Below, in pieces: positions 1 through 55,364 of a stretch of DNA of 64,000 nt. The notes under the pieces were generated by a model, which made no database searches, was not told where the DNA came from, and saw only the letters and a list, made by a program, of their open reading frames with translations. Source of the DNA: an uncultured delta proteobacterium (GTDB lineage Bacteria; Desulfobacterota; Binatia; UBA9968); the NCBI GenBank assembly GCA_963755715.1, contig CAVWLW010000064.1, positions 96,001-160,000 on the forward strand. The letters run 5' to 3'. The first letter of the stretch is position 1. Every line of letters starts with the position of its first letter. Both the position numbers and the translations under genes were made by a program.

Positions 1-1040
1 TATTTAAACTCCGGCATCACTTTCTCCGCGAAAAGACGAATATTTTTGAGCGCCAATTCCTGCGGCATGCCGCCGAAGTGAAAGGTGCCCGAGATAGTCG
101 TTAGACCGGTCTCGTCGCGCCATTTGCGAATCGTATCGGCGACTCGCTTGGGATCTCCCGCCAGCACAAAGCCGTGCTCCAATTGAGTTCTGGCATCGCG
201 TTGCGTCAGCAGCCCTTGCTCCTGGCGTTCGAGATCAGCCGCCTTGTGCACGTCGAAATAATTGATGAGATAGGGCTCCGCTTCGCGAATGGCGGCTTCT
301 AAACTGTCCGCCACGTAAATATGAAACTTGCCGAGAATGTCGGTTTTGCCGCCGTTATGACCCGCCGCGGTCAAGGCGTTTCGGTAGCTCTTGATGAATC
401 CGGGTAGTATTCCCGGTTCGCGATAGAGATAAGGCAGCGTCATCAGGTGAAAGCCGTGCTCGCCGGCCCAGCGAAAGCTATCTTCGCTGCGCGCGCATCC
501 GACCCAAAAATTGGGATGCGGCCGCTGCACCGGTTTCGGAAACACCGGCACGTTTTGATAGTTGTAAAACTCGCCCTTAAAACTGACCGGCTTGTCCGAC
601 CATGCTTGCAGCATCACTTCGACGCCTTCATACATGCGCTGGGTGGCTTCCTTTTGATCGACGCCGAACTTTTTGTACTCATGAGATTCGCTGCCTTTGC
701 CCACGCCGAAATCCAACCGGCCGTTGGAAATGACGTCGACCATCGCATAGGACTCGGCCACCTCGATCGGGTTGTGCAGCGGCAAAACATTGATGGCAAC
801 ACCCAGGCGAATCCGCTTCGTCGTGCGCGCGATGGCCGACATGAAAGTCGGCGGATGCGGCAGATCGCCGCCGTAGTGAGCGAAATGATGTTCGGTTACC
901 CAGACGTGATCGTAGCCAAGCCGATCCATTTCTTCCATCTGACCGAACATCTTTTGATAGAATTCCGTAACCGACCCGTCCAAGTCGGCGACGTAGGTCG
1001 GCAGATAATGCGCGCCGAATTTCATGCTTTTGCTAGCCAT
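1..1040 (-). CDS. LLM-class (luciferase-like) flavin-dependent oxidoreductase; stop codon cut by window edge
   Basis: Read by hand on the minus strand from ATG 1040: MASKSMKFGAHYLPTY...GYDHVWVTEHHFAHYGG...LPLHNPIEVAESYAMVDVISNGRLDFGVGKG...FAEKVMPEFK. Not in the ORF track because the stop is truncated. Confidence 0.9.
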   Translation of the reverse strand, partial: MASKSMKFGAHYLPTYVADLDGSVTEFYQKMFGQMEEMDRLGYDHVWVTEHHFAHYGGDLPHPPTFMSAIARTTKRIRLGVAINVLPLHNPIEVAESYAMVDVISNGRLDFGVGKGSESHEYKKFGVDQKEATQRMYEGVEVMLQAWSDKPVSFKGEFYNYQNVPVFPKPVQRPHPNFWVGCARSEDSFRWAGEHGFHLMTLPYLYREPGILPGFIKSYRNALTAAGHNGGKTDILGKFHIYVADSLEAAIREAEPYLINYFDVHKAADLERQEQGLLTQRDARTQLEHGFVLAGDPKRVADTIRKWRDETGLTTISGTFHFGGMPQELALKNIRLFAEKVMPEFK

Positions 1041-1121
1041 CAAGCTTCACAACCTCCAAATTTTATCCAACCAGATATAAGTTGGCACCGCGTGGGAGTC
1101 AACGCCGGGGTAAAAATGGCA

Positions 1122-1307: not shown

Positions 1308-2648
1308 TTATCCGCCCATTGCCACCGGTGGCGAGAATACCGTCGGTCCTTTGACCTCGGACTCGAGGGCTTTGAGCGCGGTTTGAATGATTTCACGGCG
1401 CAGGCGCGCGTCAAGTTCTTTGGATAAATTCGGATCGCCGCACGGATGCGGAATGCTCACGCCTTTGACGATGCGGTTGGCGCGCACCTGCTGCGCCACG
1501 GGAAACATCGCGCTGATCAACGCTACCGGTAAACCCGCCTTTTCAAGTTCTTTGCTCATCACAGCGCCGCTGCGACTGCACGTCCCTCACGTGGCGACAA
1601 ACAGGACTCCTTCGACGTTGTCTTTTTTTAAGTCCGCGGCGATTTCCTGACCGATGCGGCGCATCACCGTCGGCGAACCTTGGTTTCCGGGAATAACGTA
1701 ATAAGCCGGATAAAGTTTTCCCGGACCGATCGCGCCCTCGGCTTCCAGCGCGCGCAGCGCGTCGAGCGGCACGCCGTAGTGGGGATTCTGATTCATGTAC
1801 GCCACGTTGTAGCCGCCGTGCACCGCTTCCCATTTTCCCGGCTCGAGCTCTTTGAGCTCGGCGATATTGTATTTGCGCCAGTAGGTATTGCGATAAGTTT
1901 TGAACTTATCCGGATTGCCCCACGGCACCACCCCGCTGGTTGTCACTACGGCGATGTTGCGATCTTTTACTTGATCGAGTGGCGGCGCCGGCGGCGCGTC
2001 GTCCCACACTTCCATCGGCAGCTCGCTCTCGAACGGCTGGTTATTTATTTTCTTGAGCAGCATTTCGACCGCGCGCGTGGCGCCGCGGCGGTCGGTTTTC
2101 TCAATCCGTCGAATGCCGCGCCCGATGTAACCTTCTTTGGCCGCGGAACCGATCTCTTCACCGCGCGCTAGCCGGATCGCAAGGCGCGCCAAGCGCGTCA
2201 GCGCGTCGTTCATCCCCGTCGTCGCTTCCGCCGTCGGCAGGCAATAAACCCGCGCATTGACAAATTCGCGATAAGTGCCGACGCCCGGGTTCTCCTCGTG
2301 CATTGCGGTTAAGCAGGGAATTTGCAGCGCGTTGGCTACCGCATTGCAAATCTCGACGCAGGACAATCCGTAGCGGCCGGAGTTGAACGCCGGTCCCGCC
2401 ACCAAAACGTTGGGCTCCGCCGCGCGCACGGCGTCGAGAATCGCTTTGAGCGCTTCTTCTTTGTGCTCATGAAAGTAGTTATCGCCGACATACACCGTGC
2501 AAGCGATCTTGCCCTCGTCGCCGAGCTTTGGCTCCAAGCCGCGCGCCGCGCCGGCGCTGCCTTCGATCACGCCCACGGGCAAGCCCGCTTTTTCCTCGCC
2601 GCCGAGGCCGGCAAAAAATTGATTGACGACGTGAACGATTTTAATCAT
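1308..2648 (-). CDS. grdB: Glycine/sarcosine/betaine reductase family selenoprotein B (GrdB-like), 446 aa, Sec at codon 354 (TGA 1587-1589)
   Basis: N-terminus MIKIVHVVNQFFAGLGGEEKA, AGPAFNSGRYG and HGGY motifs. ORF 1587..2648 continues in frame through TGA into ORF 1308..1562: VAT-U-GTCSRSGAVMSKELEKAGLPV...IPHPCGDP, matching the GrdB U-x-x-C motif. Confidence 0.93.
1558..1576 (-). promoter_or_regulatory. Bacterial SECIS-like hairpin of the grdB-like gene
   Basis: UGA, a 10 nt spacer, then GUCGCAGC-GGC-GCUGUGAU (8 bp stem with two G-U pairs, G-containing apical loop). Confidence 0.7.
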
Positions 2649-2676
2649 GGCAACCGTCTCCTTAATATCTAGAAGA

Positions 2677-2788: not shown

Positions 2789-4096
2789 TTAGTATTCCGC
2801 GCATCTAAATTCCCCTTGTCCCCAAATATCCGCCCCGCCCATCATGACATCACGCGCCTCCAATGACAAAGCGCCGCGTGCCGGCACCAGAGCCGCGCCG
2901 GGAAAAGGAAAAATTTTGATCTGTTCGTACGGACCGATGACTTTGTCCATTGCCGGCAGCTCGACGACTTTATCGAGGCTGCCCGTGCTCACTATCGCAT
3001 TCGCTTCGGCAATGTAAAACAGCACAGGACTGTCTTTGCCTTCCTTACCGCCATTCTCATAAGTGACCAAGGTGGTCTTAATGCCGTTTTGCTCACACGC
3101 GCGCACCGTGAGCATGACGTCGACGAAGGCGTTGCCGCCGCCGATCCAGGTCACCAGCGCGCCATCGGCGCCCATCGCTTTGGCCAGACGCGCGGCGTTC
3201 TGCGCGCCGACTTCTTTGCCGTGGCTGGTCTCAAAGCGAATGCGCTGCAAGACCACGCCGCCGAAGTTCAAGCTTTTGCCGTGCGCCGCGTACAACTCCA
3301 AAACCAAAGGATGGTTCTGCCAATCCCAGGTCGTCGGGTAATAGCCGCGCCCCGAGCGCGTCGTGTCCACCGTCACCGCGCCGTCAAAAAGCTCGTTGGG
3401 ATGAACAAACGTGGACATGGAATTACGCAACGAGAGCCCGTAATAACCCACGCCCGAATGCACGTGCTGCGGGTCGGTGATGCAGCCTTGCACCAGCATC
3501 ACATTCGGCAGCGCCGGATCTTTCTTGCTCAAATCATAAGTGGCGATCTCTACCGGCGAAAGTTCCGCCGTGACTTGGCCAAGCCGCTGGGCAACTTTAT
3601 ATTCGGCCGATTGAATTGCCCCGTGCGCATCCAACTCGCCCAAGCCCGGCGCGATCCTGAAGCTCAAAATCAGATGTCGGCACGAGCTAAACCGGGAAAT
3701 CTCCGCGCCCGGCCCGGACATATCGAGGATGGCGTTTCTTTGCACCGTCGTGCCGGCACGGATCGTGCCTTCGTACTCCGCCGCCGCGATGACGGTCATG
3801 CCGGACAGCCGATGAGTTCGGCCATCGCCGACGTTTTCGACGGCGCCTAAAACACCGGGGAAAACCTGGCCACTGCCCGCCACTTTAAAGCGCGGCTCGA
3901 CCATATCGCGTATGCCGGTGATGCGCGTCTTTTCGCCGGGCACAGCCACGGCCAGCGTTGCATCCGTGATCCGCGTATCTTCGAGGACGAGAGCGATCAG
4001 TTCGCCCTCGTCGACCTCGAGGATTTCGCTTTCGTATTTGAAACGACTCCCCAAGCGAATCTGCTTTACCGGAAATTCTGCGAGTTCGAGTTTCAA
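2789..4096 (-). CDS. Glycine/sarcosine/betaine reductase component B subunit (GrdE/GrdG/GrdI family)
   Basis: MKLELAEFPVKQIRLG, PGEKTRI...D.VEPR.K, FPG, G.GRTHRL.G, IDMSGPGA, HPNELFDGA, QNHP...LY..HGK.LNF.GV, GADGA and GN...D motifs. Adjacent to the grdB-like gene. Confidence 0.88.
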   Translation of the reverse strand: MKLELAEFPVKQIRLGSRFKYESEILEVDEGELIALVLEDTRITDATLAVAVPGEKTRITGIRDMVEPRFKVAGSGQVFPGVLGAVENVGDGRTHRLSGMTVIAAAEYEGTIRAGTTVQRNAILDMSGPGAEISRFSSCRHLILSFRIAPGLGELDAHGAIQSAEYKVAQRLGQVTAELSPVEIATYDLSKKDPALPNVMLVQGCITDPQHVHSGVGYYGLSLRNSMSTFVHPNELFDGAVTVDTTRSGRGYYPTTWDWQNHPLVLELYAAHGKSLNFGGVVLQRIRFETSHGKEVGAQNAARLAKAMGADGALVTWIGGGNAFVDVMLTVRACEQNGIKTTLVTYENGGKEGKDSPVLFYIAEANAIVSTGSLDKVVELPAMDKVIGPYEQIKIFPFPGAALVPARGALSLEARDVMMGGADIWGQGEFRCAEY

Positions 4097-4207
4097 CGTC
4101 TTCTCTTCAACGGTTTGAACGTTTGGAACGTTTAAATTCTTCTATGCCGCAAAACTACACCTATCCCGAAATATTCCAATCCCAGCGCTGTGATCGCATA
4201 AATTGGC

Positions 4208-5314
4208 TCACGGCGCCCCCATGATTTTGCGAAAGTCCTGAATATAGTTTTGCAGATTGGCGCCAAGCTTGGGACTCACGACGAAGTCCGGTTTGACTTG
4301 AAAATCTTTAAACTTGCTGCGCACACCTTTCATCGCGCTGCCTTTGCCCAAACTCGTTGCCAAAAAAGACTGCGCTTCATCGGAGAGAACCCATTCGACG
4401 AACAGCAGCGCAGCGTGCGGGTGAGGCGCGTTCTTCGCCAAAAACAGGCCCTCGGGTTTGACGATCGTCGGCGCAAGAACTTTAAATCCCAGGGGCGCCC
4501 CTTTTTCGCGAATCGCCGCCGAAGTCTCGCCGTTGATCGCGATGCCGACGGGATATTCGCCCGAAGTCACCACCTGTGTCGTCAAGGTGCCGCCGCGCCG
4601 ATAGCTCAAATCTTGCTTGGCTAACTTCGTCAAATAAGCGACTGCTTTTTCTCGCCCCCAGCTCTCTTCCATCGCTGCCAGAATATATCCCGCTTCCGGA
4701 TCGAAAAGCATTTTACCTTTCCATGCGGGGCTAAGCAGTTCGTCGTAGCTCTTCGGAGCCTGTTCCGCCTTGATGGAGTTGGTGTTGTAAATCAAGGCTG
4801 TGGTCAAATAGTACATGCTGTGCCAGTAGCCGTCGGGATCGTAGGTGCCGTCATAAAAACGCTTCGCGCCGGCGATCGGTTGCGGCTGCACGAGATTGGC
4901 GTTCAACAACTGATAGCCGTAACTCAGATCCACTTGAATCACGTCGGCCGCATGGCGCCCGGCCCGCGCTTCGGTCAACGTGCGGCTGAGAATGCCGTCG
5001 CGCGGCGAAAAATAATGCTGCAGTGCGATAGACCGGTAGCGCCCGTTAAAAACCCGCGCCAGCGGCAGAAACTCGTCGATCGGCAGCGTGCCGTAGTAGA
5101 CGAGCTCTCCTTCCGCCTGCGCGCCCTTGAGTAAATAACTGGTTCTTTCCTGCGGCTTGAGCGATCTTATCTTTACTGCAACTTCAGCGATCGTCGCCGC
5201 ATAGAGCGTAACCGTGGCATTCGCGCAGCTAATGAGGATCGCAAAAACCAAGCTGGCTTTAGCGACTGCGGCTTGATGGCGCCTTAGCCGATGAACTTTG
5301 CCGATGAGTTTCAT
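4208..5314 (-). CDS. Extracellular solute-binding protein (Fe3+/polyamine-like ABC SBP family), orphan
   Basis: GAQAEGELVYYG, YNT...APKSYDELL.P.WKGK and APHPHAALLFVEWVLSDEAQ motifs; hydrophobic N-terminal segment. Confidence 0.85.
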   Translation of the reverse strand: MKLIGKVHRLRRHQAAVAKASLVFAILISCANATVTLYAATIAEVAVKIRSLKPQERTSYLLKGAQAEGELVYYGTLPIDEFLPLARVFNGRYRSIALQHYFSPRDGILSRTLTEARAGRHAADVIQVDLSYGYQLLNANLVQPQPIAGAKRFYDGTYDPDGYWHSMYYLTTALIYNTNSIKAEQAPKSYDELLSPAWKGKMLFDPEAGYILAAMEESWGREKAVAYLTKLAKQDLSYRRGGTLTTQVVTSGEYPVGIAINGETSAAIREKGAPLGFKVLAPTIVKPEGLFLAKNAPHPHAALLFVEWVLSDEAQSFLATSLGKGSAMKGVRSKFKDFQVKPDFVVSPKLGANLQNYIQDFRKIMGAP

Positions 5315-5535
5315 ATCAGTTTCGTTTAGCAAAACGTTGAAGCGATCGTCAATGACGATGATCGGTCATGAAAAATGTTCACGCAACCACCCGAGTCTGA
5401 TTCAGCTAGAGCACTCGATAACCCAAGCGGCGATCCACGATCGTAAATCGGCCAAATTTGTCTGGCGCTGTACGAGATCAGCATACGACATATTGCGTAT
5501 TCTTGGCTCATTGACACCGTCGTAGTTTTTTCTTA

Positions 5536-7265: not shown

Positions 7266-8555
7266 CTATTTATGATTGCGCGACTCGGCGATCCAAATAA
7301 AGATCACGGATACGAACGTCAACGCTTGAGCGATCCAAAAAGCCTCATGATAACTACCAGTCCAGTCATGAATGACGCCGCCCAGCCAAGGACCGATGCC
7401 CGCCCCCGCGCCGATAAACAGCGAAATTGCGCCGATGATCGCGCCGAAAGATTTGCCGTGAAATAAATCGGCGGCGATGGTCGGGTACAGCGATTGGCGC
7501 GACGAGAAGCCAACCGCGATAAATGGCGGAAACGCGTAGAACAACCAGCTGCGGCTGACGTCTGTGATCATCATCAAGAGGAAAATGCCCGCCATCAACG
7601 ACGCTGAGCCGAGCAAATAGGACCATTGGCGGCCGATCCGATCGGCCAACAGCCCCATGAAAATCATTGCCGGCGCGGTAAAAAGCCCGATCAGTCCGAG
7701 CCCAAACGCCGCCAGTTCTTTTGAGAATCCCGCGTCGCTCACCGCGGCAACTTGATGAATCAGGACCATGTGCAGCGGAATCGCGCCGGCGAGCACGCCG
7801 ACGGCAAAAGCCCAAAAACGCCAGGTGCGCAGCGTCTCCCTCAAGCTCGGACCGCCGACGCCCGCAGCTTTCGCGTGGGCCGCGGCATCGCGAGTCGCCG
7901 GATCGCCAAAGTCGGGTTTGAGATTCATTTCGTCCGGCCTTTGGCGTTGAAAGAAATAGTTGAGCGGCGCGACCACCATCGCCAATATGCCGGCGAGAAT
8001 GAAAAACGCCGCGCGCCAGCCGTAGGCGGCGATCAACCACTGCGTCCACGGCACGACGAGAAGAATTCCCAAACCGATGCCGGACGCCGCCGTGCCGATC
8101 GCCATGCCGCGTTTACGGATGAACCAGTTGGATAAGAAAGTCGCTTGCGAGGTCATCGGCAGGGCCGCGAAGCCGACGCCCATGAAAACTCCCATGCCGA
8201 TATAAAACGCGACAACGGAGTGGGCAAAACCGCTGATCACGAAGCCGGTTGCCATGATCAGCGCGCCGCCCGGCAGCACGATGCGCGGACCGAGCCGGTC
8301 GAGTAGAATGCCGATCACCGGCGCCGACAGCGTCCACATGACGGATCCGAGCATGAGCGCGCCGGATGCCAGCCCACGGCTCCAGCGAAACTCTTCGATC
8401 ACCGCGACTAAAAATACCGCGAAGGCGTTGCGCGTGCCGAACGCCACCGCGACGGTCAAAAACGCGATGCCGATGACGACCCACGGATAGTAACGCTGCA
8501 GCGCTCGACTTGCGGCAATCTCAGTTTTCACAGCATACAAGGTGTTTTCCCTCAA
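7266..8555 (-). CDS. MFS transporter (OFA/MCT-like)
   Basis: About 12 hydrophobic segments; motif A GILLDRLGPR and GLLADRIGR; WFIRKRGMAIG. Confidence 0.9.
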   Translation of the reverse strand: MRENTLYAVKTEIAASRALQRYYPWVVIGIAFLTVAVAFGTRNAFAVFLVAVIEEFRWSRGLASGALMLGSVMWTLSAPVIGILLDRLGPRIVLPGGALIMATGFVISGFAHSVVAFYIGMGVFMGVGFAALPMTSQATFLSNWFIRKRGMAIGTAASGIGLGILLVVPWTQWLIAAYGWRAAFFILAGILAMVVAPLNYFFQRQRPDEMNLKPDFGDPATRDAAAHAKAAGVGGPSLRETLRTWRFWAFAVGVLAGAIPLHMVLIHQVAAVSDAGFSKELAAFGLGLIGLFTAPAMIFMGLLADRIGRQWSYLLGSASLMAGIFLLMMITDVSRSWLFYAFPPFIAVGFSSRQSLYPTIAADLFHGKSFGAIIGAISLFIGAGAGIGPWLGGVIHDWTGSYHEAFWIAQALTFVSVIFIWIAESRNHK

Positions 8556-8603
8556 ATGTCGTCAGACGAAATGCGAATGTGTCGGTCAGTCAATGAGTGA
8601 TTC

Positions 8604-9573
8604 TTACAGATAGCCCTTCTCTTCATAGTATTTCTTTGCCCCCGGATGCAGGGGAATGCCGAGCGGCGCGGCTTCCGTCCCCCGGCAAAGCTTTTTCATA
8701 TCGAGTGGACCCTCGTCATCGACGGGAATAACGCTCTGCCGCAAGTCGATCGCCTGGCAAATTGCGTAAGCGAGGTCGTTGCTGAGCCCGCGATGCGTGA
8801 TCAGCGGCCAGCCGCTGAAATCGATCGTGTTGACGTCCGCTTTGAGCTGTCGGAACTTTGCAGGTGGAATGACGGAGGCTTGATAACCGAGGGCCGACAA
8901 TTGTTTTACAATTTTAGGCTCGATCGGCAAGATTTCGAATCCATGGTCGAGCGCTTCGTCGAGCCAATTATGCAGTCCTTCGTCGAAGATCGCGTTGATC
9001 TTGCCCGTTTTTATCCCGTCCAACCGCTCCGGAGAGGTAGGCCTGGGAGTCTCCTGCACTCTCCCGCCCCAGCTCTTGATCTTGGCAAAGGACAGGCCGT
9101 AAAGCGCAAGAATCTCCGTCACGGTGTAGTAAGTCGTATTGTAAATACCGGAAGGACGGGTCGAAATTCTCAAGGGTATCTTGCGCTCGGCGATTTCGAA
9201 TAGAGATTTGAGCTTCAACTCTTTGGCGACCGCAAAAGCCATTTTGTCCCAGGATGGAAAGGAAGCCAGCGCCCGGAGAGGCAGCTTCTCCTTGTAAAAC
9301 CCTTTTCCCCGATAGGCCATGGTGACGATCGCGGATGGATTGATAAAGGCGACGTCGACCCGCCGTTTTCCGACTTCAATGGGGGCTTTCATGCCGCCCA
9401 TAAGATCGCCGTTGATGCCCATCGTCATTCCGGGAAACTGCTCTTCCCGCGAGCTGGGTTGTATGGAAATCGTTGCGACGTTGCCCATGTGCAGACATCC
9501 GTTGAGTATATAACTCCGCTGCGACCTCGAGCGCCATTTTCGTCCGCATCATCCGCGCATTCATTTTGGCCAT
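8604..9573 (-). CDS. TAXI-family TRAP solute-receptor-like protein (frameshift near 9490-9510)
   Basis: C-terminal PLGIPLHPGAKKYYEEKG is the TAXI signature. RBS-linked start ATG 9573 (MAKMNARMMRTKMALEVAAELY) joins ORF 8604..9488 by a +1 shift. Confidence 0.8.
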
Positions 9574-9626
9574 GGAGATTTCCTTTTCTTACTGAGACTG
9601 GATCAGCATCGCTGGCAACGAATCCC

Positions 9627-10707
9627 TTATTGCACGATCGACGGCAATAAATCGCGCGCCAGAACCGTGATCGCTTCCTCATAGTCGGGGCCGAGCTTAG
9701 CCAAGCAAATTTGATCGAAGCCGTACTCTTGCGCGTAAGCGCACATTTCTTCGAGCGGTTTGACGCAGTCGCGCGGCGTGCCGGCAATGAAACCGATGTC
9801 GACCATCGCATCGGAGATCAGCGCCGAGACCTGCTCGATCGTGCCGCCCGCCTCGAAGGCCTGCTTAATTTGAATCACGGTCTCGCGCTCAACCCCTAAA
9901 GCCTGAAACTCTTCGTTCGAGAATCCCATCGCTTCGAGCACGACGAGCATATGGGCGATGTATCGCTTCGGAAAACTTCTCGCCTTTTGGTAATCGCTGG
10001 AGATCGAAATATTGATTTCGCAGACCTTTCGTAACTTCGTTTGGCGACCCGCATCTTTTCTTCCACGCTCGGTTTTTTCCAGCAGTCCGGCGAGCCTGCC
10101 GCTATGCACGAGCGGTTTGAAGAAGCCGCCGATCAGCACACCATCCATCACGCGGCCGGCGATCTCCATAATTCGCGGGCCGTTGCCGCCGCAATAAAAT
10201 AAAATCGGCGACTTCGGAGCAAAGCCCAATTGAATGCTGGAATTCGGGCGCAGGTTGAAGAACTCCGACAGCGACAGGATAGTCGCCGTATCTAACCGTA
10301 TCGCCGCGCAGAAGGCCCTTCATACATTCGACGGTCTCTTTCACCATGGCGATCGGTTTGACCATGTGGATTTGGTTGCCGGCTTGCGCGTAATCGCCGC
10401 GCGCGATACCCACGCTGATCTCACGACCGTCCATCAACTCCGACAGCGACGCGAAAGCATCGGCGGTATCCACTGGATTTCTGAAATACGGCACCAAAAT
10501 CGCAGTGCCGAGCTTGATCGGCACCTTCGACGCGATCGCGGTCAAAAGAACAAAAATATTTCTGTGGCCGAGATTGTCGTTGATCCAAAGCTGTGAAAAC
10601 TTATTGCGCTGAGCGTGCGCCGCGAGCTCGACCCATTGAGGTATGGAATAGTGCTTTGCGAGATGGGTCGTAAACTGTAAACCCACTTCACCCCGGTAAA
10701 CCGCCAT
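9627..10707 (-). CDS. LLM-class oxidoreductase, Mer-like, paralog of 6105-7184 (frameshift at about 10272)
   Basis: FSQLWINDNL, KLGTAILVPYFRNP, GGNGPRIMEIAGRVMDG, IAGTPRDC. Removing one base restores PVLSEFFNLRP, which aligns to the paralog PVLASYFHM. Confidence 0.85.
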
Positions 10708-15612: not shown

Positions 15613-15837
15613 CCCTGGGAATTAACATTCCCGCCGTGAAATTCAAGCCGCTCGAATCGTCCGTCGTTATGTCAGCGCTTCTAGATTTTAGGCATTCCCT
15701 TGCAGGCTCGACACTTTAAGGAGTCACTCTCGCCGAACGTCGATGTGACTTTTGGGCGATGTTATGAATTTGCGAAGAGAAAGTACGATGGGTCGAAATG
15801 AAAAACGAAGCGCGGCAAATAGCCACCCGTGTCGTCG

Positions 15838-16798
15838 TTATTTTGCTTTGAGAGATGACGATACTTCTTTTACGAAGCGACCAATCGACGATTTTTTCCA
15901 TAGGGACACCAGCGGGAACTTCCGCCATGCTCGCAACATTTTTTAAGCCTCTCTCGGTCGGCAGTCCACTATCAGGCCAGATGTCCCTTAATCTATCATA
16001 GGCTTTTTGCGCCATTTCCAAATTTTCCAGCCCGATGAAATCTTTCAGCAGTGGAACCACCTCGTCGCGGCGCGATTTAGTAAAGGCAATTCCTTTGAGA
16101 GCGCCGGCAAGAACTTTTTTTACTTGATCGGGTTTTTCGCGCAGCAGGTCATTGTTAACGATAATACCAAGGAGCGGGAATTCCAAAATATCTTTAAGAT
16201 AAACAAGCGGCCTAAAGCCGTCCTTCTCGAGGTATATTTCAAGAGGAGTCATCAACATCGCGGCGTCGACATTGCCCGCTTTGAGCCCCGCCAGGCTGGT
16301 TCGCGCGTCTCCTAAACTGGCGGTCCTCACTTCATTCGGATCAATTTTGAACTTGTCCAGGATCATCAGCAATTCGCGATGGACTGTCCCTCCCGGCTGG
16401 CTGATCGCCACCACGCGGCCGCGTAGCTGCCCCGGCGAAGTGATCTCAGGTTTGACGACCAGAACATGATGAGTTTTATCGGTAAATACCATAACGAGTC
16501 GCGCCGGCAGGCCGCGCGCGATCGCCGTCAGCGAAGATCCTGTTTGCGTGATGTAGCCGATCTGCTTTGACGCCAGAGCGGCAAGAGACGTGCGCGCTTG
16601 CATATAAACAGGCAACAACTCGAGACCTTGCTCGCGGAACAGTCCCTTTTTCCAGGCGACGTATAATGGGAACCAAGTTGCTGAGTTTGTCGAAACGCCA
16701 ATGTGGATAGGCGTCAATGTCTGGGCGAGGCCGCCGTGGTTGCCGAGTGAAAAAACAACCACGATGAAGCAACAGATAATATGTTTGGCGTGGCGCAT
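15838..16798 (-). CDS. NitT/TauT (SsuA/THI5-like) ABC substrate-binding protein, orphan (C-terminal frameshift at about 15878)
   Basis: PLYVAWKKGLFREQGLE, QLRGRVVAIS, GNVDAAML. Removing one base gives DWSFVKEVSSSLKAK-stop (TAA 15838-15840). Confidence 0.85.
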
Positions 16799-16875
16799 GG
16801 TGCCGCCGTTTCGACGCAATTCTAAAAACTCGATCCGTGCCAATTGACCCGCGGTGTGAACAGGGTCCAACTCAA

Positions 16876-20740: not shown

Positions 20741-21736
20741 ATGAAATTGCGATTGATCACTTTGCTTATTTCTGTTCTCTCTTTCTTCATCTTTGGCTTC
20801 CAATATTCTTACGCTGCGGCGCCTTTGACTAAAGTGATCATGACCAGCGGATCGGTCAGCGAGAGAGAAGGAGCTATATACGTTGCGCAGGAACACGGCT
20901 TCTTTCGTAAGTACGGCGTCGACGTTTCGTTCGTGCAGGTGCGCAACGGGCCGGTAGGCATGGCCGCGCTGAGTTCCGGAGAGACACAGTTCCACTGGGG
21001 ATCGGTCTCGGGCGCCAACCTCGGAGCGATCGCGGAGGGAGCCGACCTGGTTTTTGTCGCCGGTTTCATTAACCGACTCACCGGCATGTTCGTTGCCAAT
21101 CCAAAAATCAAAAGCCCGGCCGAACTTAAAGGTAAGAGCATCGGCGTTAACAGCCTGAGCGGCGGCGGATGGATTTTTACCATGCTCGCGCTGGACCACT
21201 GGGGCCTTGTGCCGGAGCGGGACAAAATACAGTTCAGATCCCTCGGCGATCAATCCGTCATGGTGCAAGGCTTCATGGCCGGCACCGTAGACGCTGTGGT
21301 CGTTGGCTACGCGCACGGCAGGAACTTACAGAACAAGGGCTATCGTGTCTTGGCCGATATCGAAAAACTACCTATTCCGTATCAAGGATCGGGACTTCTA
21401 GCACGCCGTGGATTTATGATTTCGTCGCCAGCGACAGCGGAAAGTGTATTGAGAGGTCTGCTCGATGCGGTGGCATTCATTCGCAACCCGGCGAACAAAG
21501 CCGATGTCATGAAGGCCGTCGCCAAAGGCATGCGTCTGCCGCGCGTCGAAGATGCCGAAGAGGGCTATCACAGCATGGCCGGACTTTACGAGAAAAAGAT
21601 TTATCCCAGCGTCGACGGCATCCGCAACGTCATTCGTTTGCTGGGCATGAACAACGAAAAAATCCGCCGTCTTAAAGCCGAGGATTTGGTCGACGACAGC
21701 ATCGTGAGGAAATTGGAAAAAGACGGACGGTTCTAA
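20741..21736 (+). CDS. NitT/TauT ABC substrate-binding protein, orphan
   Basis: Signal peptide; YVAQEHGFFRKYGVDV, ELKGKSIGV, GTVDA; RBS AGGAGG. Confidence 0.9.
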   Translation: MKLRLITLLISVLSFFIFGFQYSYAAAPLTKVIMTSGSVSEREGAIYVAQEHGFFRKYGVDVSFVQVRNGPVGMAALSSGETQFHWGSVSGANLGAIAEGADLVFVAGFINRLTGMFVANPKIKSPAELKGKSIGVNSLSGGGWIFTMLALDHWGLVPERDKIQFRSLGDQSVMVQGFMAGTVDAVVVGYAHGRNLQNKGYRVLADIEKLPIPYQGSGLLARRGFMISSPATAESVLRGLLDAVAFIRNPANKADVMKAVAKGMRLPRVEDAEEGYHSMAGLYEKKIYPSVDGIRNVIRLLGMNNEKIRRLKAEDLVDDSIVRKLEKDGRF

Positions 21737-23568: not shown

Positions 23569-24570
23569 ATGACTTCTGTAATTTCACAGTTGCTCGCTGT
23601 CCTTTTCCTCCTAAGCATCGAGCAAGCGTTTTTTTTGGGCGCGAGCCGCGCGGCGTCAGCCGAAGAGAAGGTCCGTCTTTCAGTAGCTGCCGTGACCGGC
23701 AGCTACATGGATGAATTCGTCGCCATCGAAAAGGGCTACCATCGCGACGAAGGCCTGGCGGTGGAAATGATTCGGGCCGGTGGCGGCGTGGCGACGCAAG
23801 CGCTGATCGCCGGCGATCTTCACTTCAGCACCTCGGCGGGCTCGGCTCTCGGCGCCATGCTGCGTGGTGCCGATATCAAAGTCATCTATACGAACATCGA
23901 CCGCCCCGGCTACCAATTGTGGTCAGGCCAACCCGAGATCAAGACGCTAAAAGATTTGATCGGCAAACGGGTCGGCGTCACCAGCCGTGGCGACACTCAG
24001 GAGCTCTCGGTCCGGCTGCTTCTGCGAAAGCACGGCCTTGACGCTAACTCGGTCGCCTATGTTCCCGTCGGCTTCGGCGCGACTCGGCTCGCCGCGCTGC
24101 AGACCGGCACGGTCGACGCCGTGCCTCTCGGCGCCGGGGATTTCGCGCAGTTGAAACAACCGAAGGGCCATATGCTCGGGGACGCGGAAAAAGAAATCCG
24201 TTTCGCCTACGTCGGTCTGGCCGTGCCAAGCCGACTGTTGGCGCGCAATCCAAACCTAGTCGAGCGTTTTCTCCGCGGCGTGATTAAAGGACGGGAATAT
24301 GCGCGCCGCTATCGCGAGCAGACGATCCCAATTATCGGCAAGTACACTCAAAGAAAGCGCGAATTCAACGAGGTGGATTACGACACGACACTTCCGGTAT
24401 TGACCGCCGAAGGCTGGGTAGGCGATGAAATTCTGAAAGAAGATGTCGCCATGCGCGCCGAACTCGTCAACGTCGTAGCGCCGGCCGATTTTGCCAAGTT
24501 CTTCGATTACAGCATCGTCAAAAAAATCTACCGGGAGCTTAAGGCCTCCGGATGGAAGCCCGCGCCGTAA
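23569..24570 (+). CDS. NitT/TauT ABC substrate-binding protein, orphan
   Basis: Signal peptide; VAIEKGYHRDEGL, DLIGKRVGV, RLAALQTGTVDA. Confidence 0.9.
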   Translation: MTSVISQLLAVLFLLSIEQAFFLGASRAASAEEKVRLSVAAVTGSYMDEFVAIEKGYHRDEGLAVEMIRAGGGVATQALIAGDLHFSTSAGSALGAMLRGADIKVIYTNIDRPGYQLWSGQPEIKTLKDLIGKRVGVTSRGDTQELSVRLLLRKHGLDANSVAYVPVGFGATRLAALQTGTVDAVPLGAGDFAQLKQPKGHMLGDAEKEIRFAYVGLAVPSRLLARNPNLVERFLRGVIKGREYARRYREQTIPIIGKYTQRKREFNEVDYDTTLPVLTAEGWVGDEILKEDVAMRAELVNVVAPADFAKFFDYSIVKKIYRELKASGWKPAP

Positions 24571-25956: not shown

Positions 25957-27389
25957 CTATCTACCGGCGATTTTTTGTTCGAGAAATTCGCGCCAATCGC
26001 CGGCGACTTTCTCTTTCAGCGTGCGGCTGGCGCCGCTGACCTTGGGAAACTTTTCTTGCCACTCGTAGGGCCGGGTGGCGTCGATTATCGCGCGCGAGCT
26101 GTGGCCGACCCGATCGCGCGCGATGCGCGGGTCGAGCGGGCCGCTCCACGCGCGGCGCAGGATCTCGATCGACTCGGCCGGATCGGAACGGCTGCTGAGC
26201 GCCCACAAAAATTCTTCGGAATTGGTGATGTCGACGTCGTCGTCGACTACGACCACGTAGCGGCCCAGATACGCCCCCGAGCGGCACTGGCTCGCAATCA
26301 TGCCCGCCTGGCGCGCATGACCGGGGTAGCGCTGCTTGATCGAAACAACGGTTAGAAATCTGCCGCCGGCCGGATGGCACCACACGCCTTTGACATCGGG
26401 CACACCGGCTTCGTCCATCGCGTTCCAGATCAACGACGAGCGCATGAGCGAGAAATGCACATTGTCGCCGCTCGATGGTTTCAATAACGGGAAGCCGCAG
26501 AGAATCGGATCGTTGCGATAGTAAATCGCTTTGATTTGGATCACCGGCACGGCCGGCTGATTGCTCGCGTAGTAACCCGTCCATTCACCGAAAGGCCCTT
26601 CGGGCATAACGTCTTCGACCCCGACTTCGCCTTCGATGGCGATCTCGGCATCGGCGGGAATCGGCAAGCCCGTGAGCGGCCCGTGAATAACTTGTAGCGG
26701 CTTACCGAGAATGCCGCCGGCGTAATCATACTCGTTGACCCGGTTGGGCACGTCGGTCGATGCCACGACGAAATTGATCGGATGGTGGCCGAATGAAACT
26801 GCGACGGGAAATGGTTTTCCCTGCGCGTGATATTTGTCCTTGTGCACGCGGCCATGCTTGCCTGGCGACATGTGCAGCGCCAGACGATCCGGGCCATGCA
26901 CCATAATTCGGTAAGTGCCGACGTTCACCCAATCTTCTTCCGGGTCGCGCGTGATACCAGATCGTCGGTGCCGATGTAGCGCCCGCCGTCGAGCTCGTGC
27001 CAGCGCGGCACGGGAAACTGGAGCACGTCGATGTCTTTGCCCTGCTTGACGTTTTCGAAGAGCGGTCCGGTTCGAACCGTTTCAGCGCGAATCGGTGTAA
27101 TTTTCTTCACCTGCTCGCGCCAAGCCTGGACAAAATCCATATCGCTCAGACCCGCTTTCATGCCGAGCGTCAACGCCAAACGTCCGACTGAAGAAACCAA
27201 ATTCGCCGCGACCCGATAGCCTTGGGGATAATCTTTGATGCGATCGAAAACGATCGCCGGTCGCGTCCTCGAGCGCTCGTTGATGATTTCCGTAAGCGTC
27301 GACAGCTCGAGATCCCAGTGAGCGTTTTCAACGGTCATCAACTGGCCGAGTTTATCAACGTCGCTAAGCCAAGTGCGTAGGTCTGGCAT
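25957..27389 (-). CDS. UbiD-family (prFMN-dependent) decarboxylase (frameshift at about 26955)
   Basis: DLRTWL, PAIVFDRIKDY, FPVPRWHELDGGRYIGT, (TRDPE)..VNVGTYR, PEGPFGEWTGYY, VVVVDDDVDI and IIDAT motifs. Confidence 0.92.
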
Positions 27390-39101: not shown

Positions 39102-39238
39102 ATTCGATCTCCTTCTACGTCAAGACCAGCAACCAGACCTGCTGAAAGAGTAGCCGACACGGCACACCATCGTCAACGCTGCGCGCCTTGAACGTCGAGC
39201 CGGCCTTCAATAATATGCGGCCCGAGACGGAGGCGACT

Positions 39239-40240
39239 ATGACGAGGCCGAAGATCTTGCGAATCATGCTTCATTTTTTGTGCTTTGCGTTCTTGATCGT
39301 TATTTCCGATTGTTTCGCTGAAGAGAAACTCACCGTATCTTACAGCTCGGTCGATGCGCCGAGCGCCAACTGGTACATCGCGCAGGAAAAAGGCTTGTAT
39401 AAAAAATACGGTTTGGATGTCGAGTCGATTTTCATTCCGGCGTCATCAACCAACGTCGCCGTTCTGGTTGCCGGTCAACTCAAATTTGGCAACGGCACCG
39501 GCGGTACCATCGCCAGCGCCGCCGTGAGCGGCGCCCCATTAGTAGCGGTCGCCTGCTTCATGAACACATTGCCGTACGAATTGATTGTTCAGGATTCGAT
39601 CAAAACGCCGCAGCAACTCAAAGGCAAAAGCCTCGGCATCAGCCGCATCGGCAGTTCGTCCGATGTCGCCGCGCGTATTTTTCTCAAGAACTTCGGCTTG
39701 GAACCGGATAAAGATGTCGCGATCATCCAGGTCGGAGGTTCGGGCGAGCGCTCCGCGGCGTTTCGCGCCGGCAAGATCGCCGGATTTGCCGCCCCTCCCG
39801 GAGTTTTGTATCTCACCAAAGGGCTAGCTCAACGCGTGTTGGCCAGCACGGCCGACTTTCAGAAAAACTATCCCTTTCCTTATATCTGCGGGACGACGAC
39901 CAAAAGTTACTTGGCAAACAACCGGCCGACAGTGAAACGTTTGGTCATGGGATTGACTGACGGGGTGCGCTTCTTCAAGACACAAAAAGAAGAGAGCAAG
40001 AAAATTCTCGCGAAATACACTCGGCAAAACAACGAAGCCTACCTAGAAGCCGCCTATGAAATCAACGCAAAACTCATGGACCGAGTCCCCTACGTAACCC
40101 GCGAAGGCATGGACATCCAGGTCAAAGATGCCGTGGCGCGTAAACCCGGCGCCGTCCTGAAAGTCGACGACGTTATCGACGACTCCATCGTCGCGGAATT
40201 GGAAAAGGAAGGTTTCATCGACAAGCTTTACAAGCAGTAG
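39239..40240 (+). CDS. NitT/TauT ABC substrate-binding protein, orphan
   Basis: YIAQEKGLYKKYGLDV and LKGKSLGISRIGSSSD; preceded by TTGAAC-N17-TAATAT (39188-39216). Confidence 0.9.
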   Translation: MTRPKILRIMLHFLCFAFLIVISDCFAEEKLTVSYSSVDAPSANWYIAQEKGLYKKYGLDVESIFIPASSTNVAVLVAGQLKFGNGTGGTIASAAVSGAPLVAVACFMNTLPYELIVQDSIKTPQQLKGKSLGISRIGSSSDVAARIFLKNFGLEPDKDVAIIQVGGSGERSAAFRAGKIAGFAAPPGVLYLTKGLAQRVLASTADFQKNYPFPYICGTTTKSYLANNRPTVKRLVMGLTDGVRFFKTQKEESKKILAKYTRQNNEAYLEAAYEINAKLMDRVPYVTREGMDIQVKDAVARKPGAVLKVDDVIDDSIVAELEKEGFIDKLYKQ

Positions 40241-40298
40241 TTCTTGCAGCGCGCGAACGAGTTGAACTGGCTTTCGAACGTTTTGAGCCCGTTGAGGT

Positions 40299-41339
40299 TT
40301 ATTTCCACAATTGATCGAAAAACCCTGAGCGTTTTACCTCTTCGACATAGCGATTATCGTAGTAGGCGGTTATCGGCGTGCTCCCCGCTAGCTTGGGGTC
40401 GATCAGACTACTCTGTACCATTTGCTTGACCATCGAGCGCAACGCTCCTTCGTTGACTAATCCTTCTTTCGCATAGTTTTCCGACGCGAAGAGATAAGCT
40501 TGCTCGAGCAGATCCGGATCCTTCATGGGCATCCATTTCATAATGACTTTCTTGGTGTAATCTTTGTCGGTTTGGATCAGCTTGATCGCTTCCGCCGTTA
40601 CTTTGATCACGCGAATCACGGTGTCTTTGTCTTTCTCGATGACCGAGCGGCGGGCAACGATGCCATTCGTGATAAAATCGGTAAATTTTTTGAGATCGTT
40701 AGGCGATACCAGTTCGTTGTAGCCTTGTTTCTTCAGTTGAAAATTATAAGGCGGGGAGAAAACCGCTCCATCGACCGAGCCTCGCACCAAACCGGCGAGC
40801 GCTTCGGGCTGTCCGCCCATTTGCAGAATGGTGACATTTTTTACGCCATAACCATCGATCGCGGTCTGCAACGCAAAGTGTGTAACCGTGCCGAGACGGC
40901 TGACGCCGATCTTTTTTCCCGCCATGTCTTCGGGTCGTTTGATCTCAGGCTTGACCATCACCGACTGCGTAAACCGGGGAACCATGGCTGTGACATGAAT
41001 GATATCACCGCCGCTTAAGATGTTGGCGATGATGGCAGGCCCGCCGGAACCGGACATTTCAGCGGCTCCCGACAACATCGATTGGAAAAGCGCTGAAGAG
41101 GCGCCTATGAAAATCGGATCGAGATCGATACCGTACTTTTCCGAAAGGCGCGCTTGCTTGGCGACAAACCAAGGAAGACAATTGAGACCGATCGGCGAGA
41201 ACGGAAAGGGAACTTTCTTGAGCGTCTGCGCCTGGAGCGAGCCAGGCAAAAGAAGCGCGGCGGCGAGAATGAAGAGAGCGAGCTTACGGCCAGCCCTCAA
41301 AGACAGGTAAGAAGACAGAAAATTTAGCGAGCGTTTCAT
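40299..41339 (-). CDS. NitT/TauT ABC substrate-binding protein, orphan
   Basis: Signal peptide; KYGIDL, GKKIGVSRLG and GSVDGAVFSPP; RBS AGGAGG. Confidence 0.9.
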   Translation of the reverse strand: MKRSLNFLSSYLSLRAGRKLALFILAAALLLPGSLQAQTLKKVPFPFSPIGLNCLPWFVAKQARLSEKYGIDLDPIFIGASSALFQSMLSGAAEMSGSGGPAIIANILSGGDIIHVTAMVPRFTQSVMVKPEIKRPEDMAGKKIGVSRLGTVTHFALQTAIDGYGVKNVTILQMGGQPEALAGLVRGSVDGAVFSPPYNFQLKKQGYNELVSPNDLKKFTDFITNGIVARRSVIEKDKDTVIRVIKVTAEAIKLIQTDKDYTKKVIMKWMPMKDPDLLEQAYLFASENYAKEGLVNEGALRSMVKQMVQSSLIDPKLAGSTPITAYYDNRYVEEVKRSGFFDQLWK

Positions 41340-43364: not shown

Positions 43365-43441
43365 GTGCGATCCTCCAAACGAAGATAAGGACTCAGCAGA
43401 CTGTGCCCTTACGCGACTGGCATTATATTCCCCCAACTAGA

Positions 43442-45750: not shown

Positions 45751-45790
45751 TTTTTTAACCTCCAAAACATCGAAACATTTTTTGTAACTT

Positions 45791-49873: not shown

Positions 49874-50201
49874 ATCGCCTCCATATAAATAAATCCGTTT
49901 GTGCGGATCCCTTGCCAAACCGTCGCCGCCTGGAACATAAGGCAGATCGAAATCGAAGGTCAAGAATAATCGTTTTCAATCGGCGCGAGAGCCGCTGACC
50001 ACTGCCCATGCCGCTCGGTTTCTCGATTTTACCTTGACAGGAACGATCGAGCCGTCGTTTAATCCGGGGCAAATGAAATGGCTAAGAGACAAGGTGACCT
50101 CGGGCGAGATTTTCGCGAGAGCTGTTCCGAAGTTCTTTTCTAGCTTTGCTTTGGCTTACGACCGGTTAGGAGAGGTGCGGTGGAGGAGAGGGGAAATCGG
50201 C

Positions 50202-53702: not shown

Positions 53703-55364
53703 ATGGCCGACGATACGAACGGAACTGAAAAAATCTCCGTGCTCAATCCGGTAGGATTTCCGCCCAAGATCACGCCCAAGCCGATGGCGCCGCGGCTGGA
53801 AAGCCTGGACGGCAAAACCATTTATTTAGTCGACCCCCGCTTCGACGACTCGGGGCTGTTTCTGCGCCAGGTGCAAGACTGGTTCGCCGAGCACATGCCC
53901 TCTGTGAACACCAATCTTGTGGAGATGTCGAGCGTCTACACCAAGGACGATCCGAAAACCTGGGAGATGATCAAGGCCAACGGCGACGGCGCCATCATCG
54001 GTGTCGGCCATTGAAGCACTTGCGCGCCGGCGGTCGCCGTGCACGCAATCGCTCTCGATAGCAAATACGGTGTGCCCACCGTGGCTATCCACACTAACGT
54101 CTTCGAGAAGGCCGTGCAGTCGGTGACGCGCATGCATGGAATGCCCCAAGCGCGTTACACTTTCGTGCCCCAACCGGTCATGGGCAAGACCGCCGAACAG
54201 CTACGAGCGTACGTCGACGGCAAGAGCCCGATCAGTGGCCGCCCAGTGATGCAGGAAGTCATCGAAGGACTCACCCGCCCAGCCGAAGGCGATCATCTGA
54301 AGGAAATCAAGTTCGAGCGCTCCACGCCGAGATTGGTGGACTCCGATACAGACGACAACCTGCATCATCTGTTCCTGGAAAATAATTGGACGGACAAGTT
54401 ACCGATCGTTTTGCCGACGGAAAAGCGGGTAGCGGAAATGCTCGCGCATACGAGCCGCAAGCCGGACGAGGTCGCCGGGCATATCCGCTCGAACCAATTT
54501 CGTCAGCACTGGGAATTCACCGTCGAAAAAGTCGCGGTCAATGCCGTGATGGCGGGCGCGAGCCCGGAATATTTTCCGGTGATCCTGGCCTTGGCGGCAA
54601 GCGGCGTGAGCGCGCGCGGCAGCACGACGAGCTCGATGGCCGCAATGGTCGTCGTCAACGGCCCGATCCGAAATGAAATCGGCATGAACTCGGGCACCGG
54701 CGCCATGGCGCCTTACAATCACGCCAACGCGACCATCGGGCGTGCTTATGGTTTGCTATCGCAAAATCTCCAGGGCGGGTCGATCCCGGGAGACAGCTAC
54801 ATGGGCTCCCAGGGCAATGGCTACGCCTACGGCAGCGTGACGTTCGCCGAGAATGAGGAGCGCAGCCCGTGGACGCCTTTTCACGTGCAGCATGGGTTCA
54901 AGCCGACGGACAGCACGGTGAGCATATTTACCGGCTGCCGCTCCACGGCGTTCACGCTCGGCGTGCGCGAGAAATACTGGCGCGAGCATGTGCGCAACAT
55001 GCTGCGCGGCATGGACGCGCACAGCGCACCGACGTTTCTGCTCGACCCGATCGCGGCGCGCCAGTACATCGACCGCGGCGGCTTCGACACCAAGGAAAAA
55101 ATGATCGAATGGGTTTACGAAAACGCGCTGATGCCCGCGGGTGAGTATTGGGATTATCAGCTGATCCAGAATTACATTTACCCGCGTGCGACGTTCGGCG
55201 AAGAACCCTACGCATCGAAGCTGAAAGCGGCGCCGGAGGAAATGATCAAGATGTTCAAGCCCGATGAAATTCACATCGTAGTCGTCGGCGGCGAAACCAA
55301 CGGCTACTGGCGCATCATGGGATGCAACTATCAGAAGACCGTTTCAGTGGATGAATGGAGATAA
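53703..55364 (+). CDS. UGSC-family selenoprotein fusion, 553 aa, Sec at codon 104 (TGA 54012-54014)
   Basis: MAPRLESLDGKTIYLVD...DGAIIGVGH-U-STCAPAVAVHAIALDSKYGVPTV reads in frame from ORF 53703..54014 into ORF 54039..55364. The C-terminal domain has WTDKLPIVLPT, TVEKVAVNAVMAG, VVNGP, ANATIGRA and FAENEE.SPW. Confidence 0.88.
54015..54053 (+). promoter_or_regulatory. Bacterial SECIS-like hairpin
   Basis: Starts directly after UGA: AGC/GCU, UUGCG/CGCAA, GC/GC, bulged U, CGGC/GCCG, apical loop GGUC. Confidence 0.75.

Follow-up and report, generated by a model that had tools for sequence, protein, structure and literature searches.

A GrdB-family gene with a conserved in-frame UGA and a UxxCxxS motif in an uncultured Binatia-type bacterium

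Two open reading frames (ORFs) on the minus strand of a 64,000-nucleotide stretch of DNA from an uncultured delta proteobacterium (contig CAVWLW010000064.1, positions 96,001 to 160,000; in the following the window), one of 353 amino acids with an ATG start (1587..2648) and one of 84 amino acids (1308..1562), share a common frame and are joined by a TGA codon at 1587..1589. The locus raises the question of whether this TGA is a stop, an error or a codon for selenocysteine (Sec), and what kind of enzyme the joined frame would specify. Single-frame translation of 1308..2648 with TGA read as U confirmed the preliminary description of the locus, in which both ORFs had been connected through this codon, and yielded 446 residues with a single recoded codon. 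The 446 codons run from an ATG at 2646-2648 to a TAA stop at 1308-1310, and direct reading of the sequence revealed a Shine-Dalgarno-like AAGGAGA on the same strand 8 nt before the ATG (2657..2663). The predicted selenocysteine, U354, is found in the context ...EGVLFVAT-U-GTCSRSGAVMSKELE..., corresponding to the motif VAT-U-GTCSRSGA.

Family assignment and motif variants

The NCBIfam model TIGR01918 (glycine/betaine/sarcosine/D-proline family reductase selenoprotein B) recognized the translated protein with 446 bits (cut-off 65.45) and aligned residues 3-438 to profile positions 1-430 of 431, passing straight through the TGA, and Pfam family PF07355 (GRDB) matched residues 1-353 with 385 bits (cut-off 22). 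U354 aligns with U350 of GrdF encoded on the megaplasmid of Peptoclostridium acidaminophilum and with the U of two clostridial GrdH proteins (loci L064 and L065); as a control, the Sec subunit from L064 reached 848.7 bits with the GrdH model (cut-off 775). The gene can be assigned with high confidence to the GrdB family, as a predicted selenoprotein B that belongs to no substrate-defined equivalog.

A scan of GTDB species genomes provided 69 related loci, stemming mostly from metagenome-assembled genomes (MAGs) titled Candidatus Binatia, 'uncultured delta proteobacterium', Deltaproteobacteria or Thermodesulfobacteriota. L027 ends before codon 354, and the other 68 reach it. All 68 carry TGA at the aligned codon and none carries TGC or TGG, in line with the selenocysteine proposed earlier for this position. 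The sequence following the UGA falls into a small number of variants. UGTCSRSGA, the form found in the window, is shared by 39 loci (clade A, 64-96% identity), and UGTSTRSGA, in which both cysteines are serines, occurs in 25 loci (clade B, about 40% identity). UGTSTRGGA and UGTSTRCGA are found in one locus each (L040 and L062, respectively), UGTCTRCGA is present in the clostridial loci L064 and L065, and GrdF from P. acidaminophilum reads UGTCTRC. In a maximum-likelihood tree of 59 intact rows, from which 11 frameshifted, partial or extra-stop loci were left out (L020, L023, L027, L028, L038, L054, L055, L060, L062, L066 and L069), the 34 UGTCSRS rows are separated from the remaining rows by a branch with 100/100 support, as are the 22 UGTSTRS rows by a second one. 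UxxCxxS is the fixed state of clade A.

The preliminary description had stated that GrdB, GrdF and GrdH carry U-x-x-C-x-x-C, which is borne out by P. acidaminophilum GrdF and both clostridial GrdH genes, and that the last Cys is replaced by Ser in the window. The window protein indeed reads U-G-T-C-S-R-S, with the proximal Cys kept and the distal one exchanged: Cys357 is encoded by TGC at 1578..1580 (minus strand; TGC or TGT in all 36 distinct clade-A sequences), and Ser360 by AGC at 1569..1571 (minus strand), where canonical GrdB, GrdF and GrdH have Cys (TGC). AGC is present in 40 of 40 clade members including the window, and the exchange is hence no error. A published genome analysis (PMC6778437), passages of which credit the U-x-x-C-x-x-C motif to Wagner et al. 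(1999), called a GrdB without UxxCxxC a probable pseudogene. Clade A and likewise the UxxSxxS, UGTSTRG and UGTSTRC variants show that the family can do without the supposedly 'required' UxxCxxC motif; as clade A has uniformly lost the distal Cys, its loss is tolerated, and this residue would be dispensable. Shortening of Sec genes by annotation and loss of the CxxC portion of the motif have been known before; new are a large clade of Binatia type in which UxxCxxS is fixed and its UxxSxxS-bearing sister clade. In full-text literature searches, no paper was met that brings Binatia or Binatota together with the reductases of glycine, betaine or sarcosine, nor any that treats the use of Sec by Binatota; the sole match was an entry in a reference list.

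Shortening by annotation also affects the closest relatives. A word-index search of a protein database returned 1071 relatives, and statistics were derived from the best 120 clusters. These are 77-99% identical to the query, none covers more than 79% of it, and they are 353 (113 clusters), 352 (four clusters), 356, 368 or 383 amino acids long; those that are named in their source are called 'glycine reductase' or 'betaine reductase'. The nearest clusters end around residue 353 because gene callers stop at UGA, and the earlier notion that homologs ending at this position would disprove selenocysteine is invalid. A large family of uncultured soil and groundwater bacteria has thus been both shortened in annotation and weakly named by transfer.

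The clade-B loci (L039-L068, e.g., L043, 10001-11284) reside on many complete Binatia chromosomes and in one Dehalococcoidia MAG. Most of them do not have GrdA or GrdC nearby, and L066 as well as the single-motif outliers L040 and L062 do. Six-frame ORF single-linkage clustering of the loci was not used, as antisense ORFs pollute the clusters in GC-rich sequences, and greedy ORF picking led to spurious ORFs in L039 and L043.

Decoding of UGA-354

The reading frame stays open across relatives up to a shared stop at codon 447. In the 92 codons after the TGA, synonymous differences exceed non-synonymous ones in 19 of 19 ungapped full-length comparisons (e.g., 37/5 for L002, 33/6, and 31/27 for L035), an excess that is similar to or stronger than that in the N-terminal 353 codons. 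These 92 codons are under purifying selection.

The 8-bp hairpin noted earlier 10 nt after the UGA is present at 1558..1576 on the minus strand (RNA positions 14-32), with two G-U pairs among the 8 bp, a 7-bp conserved core and a GGC loop starting 18 nt past the UGA. Together with a 3-bp lower stem it extends over 1553-1580, with a fold energy of -13.0 kcal/mol. In an alignment of 60 sequences from the TGA onward, the eight-pair helix is paired in 94.8% of the cells and three pairs exhibit double-sided compensatory changes. None of 500 column shuffles matched any of five helix measures, slid controls paired at 13-59%, and RNAalifold independently recovered the same 7-bp core helix. Among the 36 distinct clade-A sequences, the stem shows no variation at its five wobble positions, and wobble positions vary freely before the stem (columns 6, 9 and 12), in the loop (24) and after the stem (33, 39, 45 and further). 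In the relatives the hairpin consists of a conserved 7-8-bp stem with a GGN loop, a bacterial selenocysteine insertion sequence (SECIS)-type structure which we take to agree with the criteria of bSECISearch. The comparison with relatives, i.e., TGA conservation, open frame, covariation and invariant wobble positions, puts the combination of hairpin and UGA beyond chance.

One of the pairs in this helix connects the structure directly with the motif exchange. The codon for the third motif residue (Ser360 in the window) has its first base in column 19, and the wobble base of the next Ala codon falls in column 27. AGC (Ser)...GCU gives A-U, as in the window, TGC (Cys)...GCA gives U-A, as in the TGC-bearing loci L062, L064 and L065, and GGC (Gly)...GCC gives G-C. 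As both columns compensate each other, a synonymous change has allowed the SECIS stem to accept the replacement of Cys by Ser, and the clade provides a clean natural case of an amino-acid change within a SECIS stem that is compensated at a synonymous site.

Of 43 Pfam-supported ORFs of the window, 11 end with TGA as an ordinary stop, which rules out global reassignment of this codon. In addition, further genes carry TGA at the Sec positions of their families. One is a gene of the UGSC family in the window (53703..55364, plus strand) with TGA at 54012-54014 (U104, context GVGH-U-STCAP), for which the Pfam model UGSC aligned with 89 bits across the TGA (residues 13-171) and the NCBIfam model UGSC_fam stayed with 62 bits below its cut-off of 125; another is the GrdA gene of clade-A relatives, which reads ...QCFV-U-TAAG. 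Coding constraint, conserved RNA structure, the lack of global recoding and these other Sec-family genes together argue for UGA-354 being read as selenocysteine, and we have high confidence in the prediction that it is recoded with the help of the hairpin. Of the preliminary view of a real Sec enzyme with an altered active site, the first part is supported in so far as this is a genuine GrdB-family gene with a conserved UGA at the Sec position of the family and a conserved SECIS-like hairpin, and the word 'altered' appears overstated given that Sec and UxxC are intact.

The other possible way of obtaining a full-length protein would be near-cognate or suppressor readthrough of UGA-354 as Cys or Trp, resulting in a selenium-free product. 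ARAGORN detected one tRNA-Arg and no tRNA-Sec in 60 loci, and the window yielded no tRNA of any kind, as would suit such decoding, and distant full-length homologs point in the same direction: in an all-against-all representative library with 1484 matches at E ≤ 0.001, seven of the best 150, which were inspected, align past residue 354 and show C (four), G, T or W at the Sec column, bearing in mind that this library may print U as C. These seven sequences are at most 41% identical to the window protein, and no Cys form at the Sec column was seen inside clade A. A hairpin maintained by compensatory changes and frozen synonymous sites, a TGA that was never exchanged for TGC or TGG, its presence at Sec positions of GrdA and UGSC genes and its normal use as a stop elsewhere in the window all contradict selenium-free decoding, which we consider very improbable. 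Less credible still is a nonsense mutation or assembly error leaving a pseudogene or a true product of 353 amino acids next to a separate or meaningless 84-aa ORF, a reading that could draw on the 353-aa database products and on the frameshift-split genes in the window (luciferase-like, 9627..10707; UbiD, 25957..27389) and that was rejected in view of the same TGA in 68 independent assemblies, purifying selection on the downstream codons up to the shared stop and a family alignment extending through the TGA to residue 438.

In five representatives of about 700-800 amino acids (P0151, P0173, P0210, P0217 and P0250) the GrdB-like part starts at around residue 430-460. In P0250, the sole one that was aligned, the N-terminal part is GrdE-like and the Sec column holds W. 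These proteins are either true GrdE-GrdB fusions or gene calls made under a code that reads TGA.

Partner subunit, gene neighborhood and proposed function

The gene directly upstream (2789..4096, minus strand) encodes a GrdE/GrdG/GrdI-like partner subunit of 435 amino acids with a TTG start (Pfam Gly_reductase, PF09338, 318.6 bits), and all related loci whose flank is available have a GrdE-like homolog next to the GrdB-like gene. Searches of the PDB by sequence and by profile with both subunits gave no credible match (best E = 0.035). According to passages of PMC9908766, Cys242 of GrdE from Clostridioides difficile is the pyruvoyl precursor, and N241-C242 at the processing site of GrdG from P. 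acidaminophilum (L070) matches the position of the Cys242-derived pyruvoyl peptide mapped in the C. difficile protein. At these columns the window protein has Thr-Thr and thus does not contain the Cys expected for a pyruvoyl proprotein. The Cys242 column is occupied by Thr in 46 of 46 clade-A GrdE-like proteins including that of the window, by Tyr in 24 clade-B partners and by Phe in both GrdI-like proteins from L064 and L065, which feature Ser-Phe at the Asn-Cys site. For the D-proline reductase subunit PrdA, passages of PMC11229817 report pyruvoyl dependence, a cleavage site at Thr420-Cys421 and abolished processing upon the exchange C421S, and passages of PMC10838667 characterize FarE as lacking the processing cysteines and 'similar to grdI', with both FarE and GrdI described as unprocessed. 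Most likely, then, component B of the window system is predicted to be pyruvoyl-free. Thr at the processing site of every clade-A partner is new, as are the sets of partner paralogs and the context of binding protein and luciferase-like oxidoreductase treated below.

Aligned clade-A GrdE-like proteins show Thr-Arg at the processing column and, in the six sequences aligned, a Q-G-C-[IL]-T motif some 45 residues before it (residues ~210-255 of the window protein P0002) that is absent from the aligned clostridial and clade-B sequences; its Cys could be a thiol replacing the missing motif Cys. The Cys of MPCSS in L064 and L065 was considered as pyruvoyl site and dropped, as the GrdH score identifies this pair as GrdH/GrdI, and the site was derived anew from GrdG.

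The same-strand gene row is headed by a gene for a periplasmic solute-binding protein of the PotD/PhnS-like type (4208..5332, minus strand; Pfam SBP_bac_8/6/1/11), the match to PhnS2 being weak (56.6 bits, cut-off 392.75). Its ortholog is located upstream of the GrdE-like gene in 17 clade-A loci, and the protein probably delivers the substrate, which makes it the candidate uptake component. Downstream, a luciferase-like (FMN/F420-type) oxidoreductase gene runs off the end of the window (3..1043, minus strand; Pfam Bac_luciferase, 210 bits). Twelve of the closest loci contain orthologs with at least 74% identity, and in 11 of these the distance to the stop of the GrdB-like gene is no more than about 1.5 kb. 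A functional link to the GrdB-like gene may be envisaged. In the closest subclade including the window (12 loci, at least 80% identity), the genes for the binding protein, the GrdE-like protein, the GrdB-like protein and the luciferase-like oxidoreductase follow each other in this order.

Other members of clade A offer a different picture. In eight loci (L010, L011, L012, L013, L015, L019, L024 and L025) the ortholog is followed by a further GrdE-like gene (not in L010) and then by GrdC and GrdA. GrdC scored 515, 510, 493 and 503 bits in L012, L013, L019 and L024, respectively, with NF040746 (cut-off 450), and full-length GrdA of L012 scored 199 bits with NF040748 (cut-off 130) and contains the motif CFVU with a TGA of its own. 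The presence of GrdC and GrdA beside the ortholog in these loci indicates that the clade belongs to a Grd-type system of components A, B and C. The preliminary description had placed the gene in a region full of oxygenases and not of Stickland fermentation genes; the gene is, however, not isolated there, as a GrdE-like gene, the type of partner that is obligatory for it, lies directly upstream and grdC and grdA follow the ortholog in eight relatives.

L012 (4136-14949) and, similarly, L013 contain one GrdB-like gene, three GrdE-like paralogs that are 57-77% identical to the GrdE-like protein of the window, the binding protein, GrdC and GrdA. The second GrdE-like and the GrdB-like gene of L012 are separated by an IS110-family transposase gene (8546-9772). 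This layout suggests that several specificity subunits share one Sec subunit.

Our best reading, which we consider fairly probable, is that the gene encodes the substrate-specific component of a Sec-dependent, Grd-type reductase that is paired with the GrdE-like protein and acts on a substrate not bound as a Schiff base. The individual steps are modeled on the family, i.e., on the glycine-reductase mechanism (Andreesen). The GrdB-like product would pair with the GrdE-like protein encoded just upstream, and the selenolate of U354 would attack C-2 of a substrate of the type X-CH2-COO(-) bound by the GrdE-like subunit and expel X. The carboxymethyl group would then pass to the Sec of GrdA, GrdC would turn it into acetyl phosphate, and a thioredoxin-type system would re-reduce GrdA. 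As the partner does not have an Asn-Cys site, activation of the substrate as a Schiff base is improbable; a pyruvoyl-free component B would argue for direct selenolate attack and against a primary or secondary amine bound in that way. Instead, a substrate with a good leaving group appears plausible, such as a quaternary ammonium, a sulfonium, a halide or similar, by analogy with GrdH/GrdI and FarB/FarE. In passages of PMC6778437, PMC10838667 and PMC13188914, the role ascribed to the CxxC cysteines is protection of Sec against oxidation or contact with GrdA. The proximal Cys of the window protein may still form a protective or resolving Se-S bond with Sec.

Several results weigh against this reading. 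All substrate-level models were far missed by the GrdB-like protein: GrdF (NF040794) with 437.9 bits (cut-off 800), the best score at equivalog level, GrdB (TIGR01917) with 411.8 bits (cut-off 602.2) and GrdH (NF040795) with 404.3 bits (cut-off 775), so that the substrate cannot be transferred by homology. Taken by itself, the single sequence of the hairpin does not prove a SECIS element, as it folds only weakly better than dinucleotide shuffles (z = -1.86; 7 of 200 shuffles fold at least as well), and Rfam at gathering thresholds gave zero family matches in the whole window. The pyruvoyl-free state is derived from an alignment to one characterized GrdG, and two residues past the Cys242 column some paralogs have Cys (TRC) and the window protein Ser. 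Neither grdA, grdC, grdD and trx nor selA, selB, selC and selD were found in the window by tblastn for GrdA and GrdC, Pfam analysis of 58 ORFs and ARAGORN, no GrdD (component C alpha) is present next to GrdC in the loci scanned, and in the closest subclade the luciferase-like gene lies downstream with neither GrdC nor GrdA within reach.

The latter arrangement makes a GrdA-independent mode possible, and the pair of GrdB-like and GrdE-like proteins could act alone in the manner of PrdA/PrdB, reducing or cleaving the substrate directly, with re-reduction by a thiol system or the luciferase-like partner and no formation of acetyl phosphate. Apart from the lack of grdA and grdC in the window and the position of the luciferase-like gene in the 12 closest loci, this would be in keeping with the finding, given in passages of PMC11229817, that PrdA and PrdB by themselves are catalytically competent. 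It is countered by the orthologs of 64-78% identity that sit in GrdB-GrdE'-GrdC-GrdA rows in eight loci and by statements in PMC10838667 that a single GrdA/GrdC set, encoded at another place, serves several protein-B complexes. We hold a stand-alone reductase to be unlikely and, returning to the Grd-type reductase with components A and C, suppose that GrdA and GrdC of this genome are encoded outside the window.

Among known systems, the betaine reductase GrdH/GrdI of Peptoclostridium (Eubacterium) acidaminophilum and relatives resembles the window system in two-gene architecture, family models, UGA position, hairpin and a partner without the Asn-Cys processing site, the last feature pointing to a substrate that needs no Schiff base. 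It differs in the UxxCxxC motif, in sequence (36-38% identity of the window protein to L064 and L065, apart from the missed GrdH cut-off), in the type of transporter, which is PotD/PhnS-like in the window, and in its host, a fermenting Firmicute as opposed to a Binatia-type lineage. Likeness to GrdF/GrdG and GrdB/GrdE consists in the best equivalog-level scores of the two subunits (GrdF, 438 bits; GrdG, 240.8 bits) and in the presence of GrdA (CxxU) and GrdC in the system of the relatives. Nonetheless, these scores stay far below the cut-offs of 800 and 780, respectively, UGTCSRS and Thr-Thr stand in place of UGTCTRC and N241-C242 of P. acidaminophilum, and, unlike in clostridial Stickland systems, no GrdD, GrdX, TrxA or TrxB is encoded adjacent to the gene in the window.

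Fluoroacetate reductase FarB/FarE from Cloacibacillus (Synergistota), as presented in passages of PMC10838667, provides a precedent in being a GrdB-family selenoprotein with a degenerate CxxC and a GrdE-like partner that is no proprotein, which act on a non-amine substrate of the type X-CH2-COO(-). FarB is reported there to lack both cysteines, whereas the window protein keeps the proximal one. Moreover, the partner does not reach the cut-off of the FarE model NF053623 (109.9 bits vs. 675), and the gene row contains neither a radical-SAM nor an oxalate/formate-antiporter gene; a major facilitator superfamily transporter is encoded 3 kb away (7266..8555). D-proline reductase PrdB is homologous to the window protein in the C-terminal Sec domain (residues 224-429 match TIGR04483 with 79 bits) and has a UxxC-type motif, as tabulated in the review PMC13188914. 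PrdB, however, comprises about 240 amino acids without the N-terminal GRDB domain, the score of the window protein stays below the model's cut-off of 300 bits, and pyruvoyl-dependent PrdA (T420/C421) differs from the window partner with its Thr at the Cys column. All in all, the window system would work most like GrdH/GrdI or FarB/FarE.

Cys-free partner subunits and sets of paralogs suggest further substrates besides glycine, sarcosine and betaine, much as FarB/FarE extended the range to fluoroacetate. Taken further, this leads to a tentative and still doubtful proposal: Binatia-type bacteria from soil, groundwater and sponges that are otherwise oxygenase-rich might carry a widespread, uncharacterized selenoenzyme system made up of a GrdB-like protein with UxxCxxS (UxxSxxS in the sister clade), up to three interchangeable, pyruvoyl-free GrdE-like subunits, and GrdA and GrdC without GrdD, and reductive cleavage of X-CH2-COO(-) compounds of the non-amine or quaternary kind (betaine-, sulfonium-, halo- or phosphono-acetate-like) by this system might yield acetyl phosphate. 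Binatota are generally aerobic and methylotrophic. If true, Stickland-type substrate-level phosphorylation would occur outside fermentative anaerobes and with substrates new to the family.

Other genes of the window

The UGSC gene has a C-terminal extension of about 380 amino acids without a family match and is followed by a thioredoxin-reductase-like gene (55464-56390, plus strand; TIGR01292, 315 bits vs. a cut-off of 343). Three genes on the minus strand appear to be split by frameshifts, i.e., those for a luciferase-like monooxygenase (9627-10707), a UbiD decarboxylase (25957-27389) and possibly an amidohydrolase (44713-46811). In these cases, overlapping or abutting ORFs carry complementary halves of one Pfam domain, which looks like indel-type assembly error or decay, unlike the in-frame TGA cases.

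Imperfect palindromes containing AACGTT upstream of the GrdB-like and GrdE-like starts (2672-2700 and 4106-4136) were considered as an operator and dismissed as not significant, their shared 11-mer being found twice with 1.35 occurrences expected.

Orphan periplasmic binding-protein genes are unusually dense in the window, with at least eight of the NMT1/SsuA type (e.g., 8604-9488, 15716-16870, 20741-21736, 23569-24570, 39188-41339 and 47770-48777) and three of the TctC type (42333-43436, 48842-49963 and 56427-57473). They are interleaved with genes for oxygenases, luciferase-like oxidoreductases, cupins and hydrolases, and the same families flank the GrdB-like gene in L019, L031 and L033.

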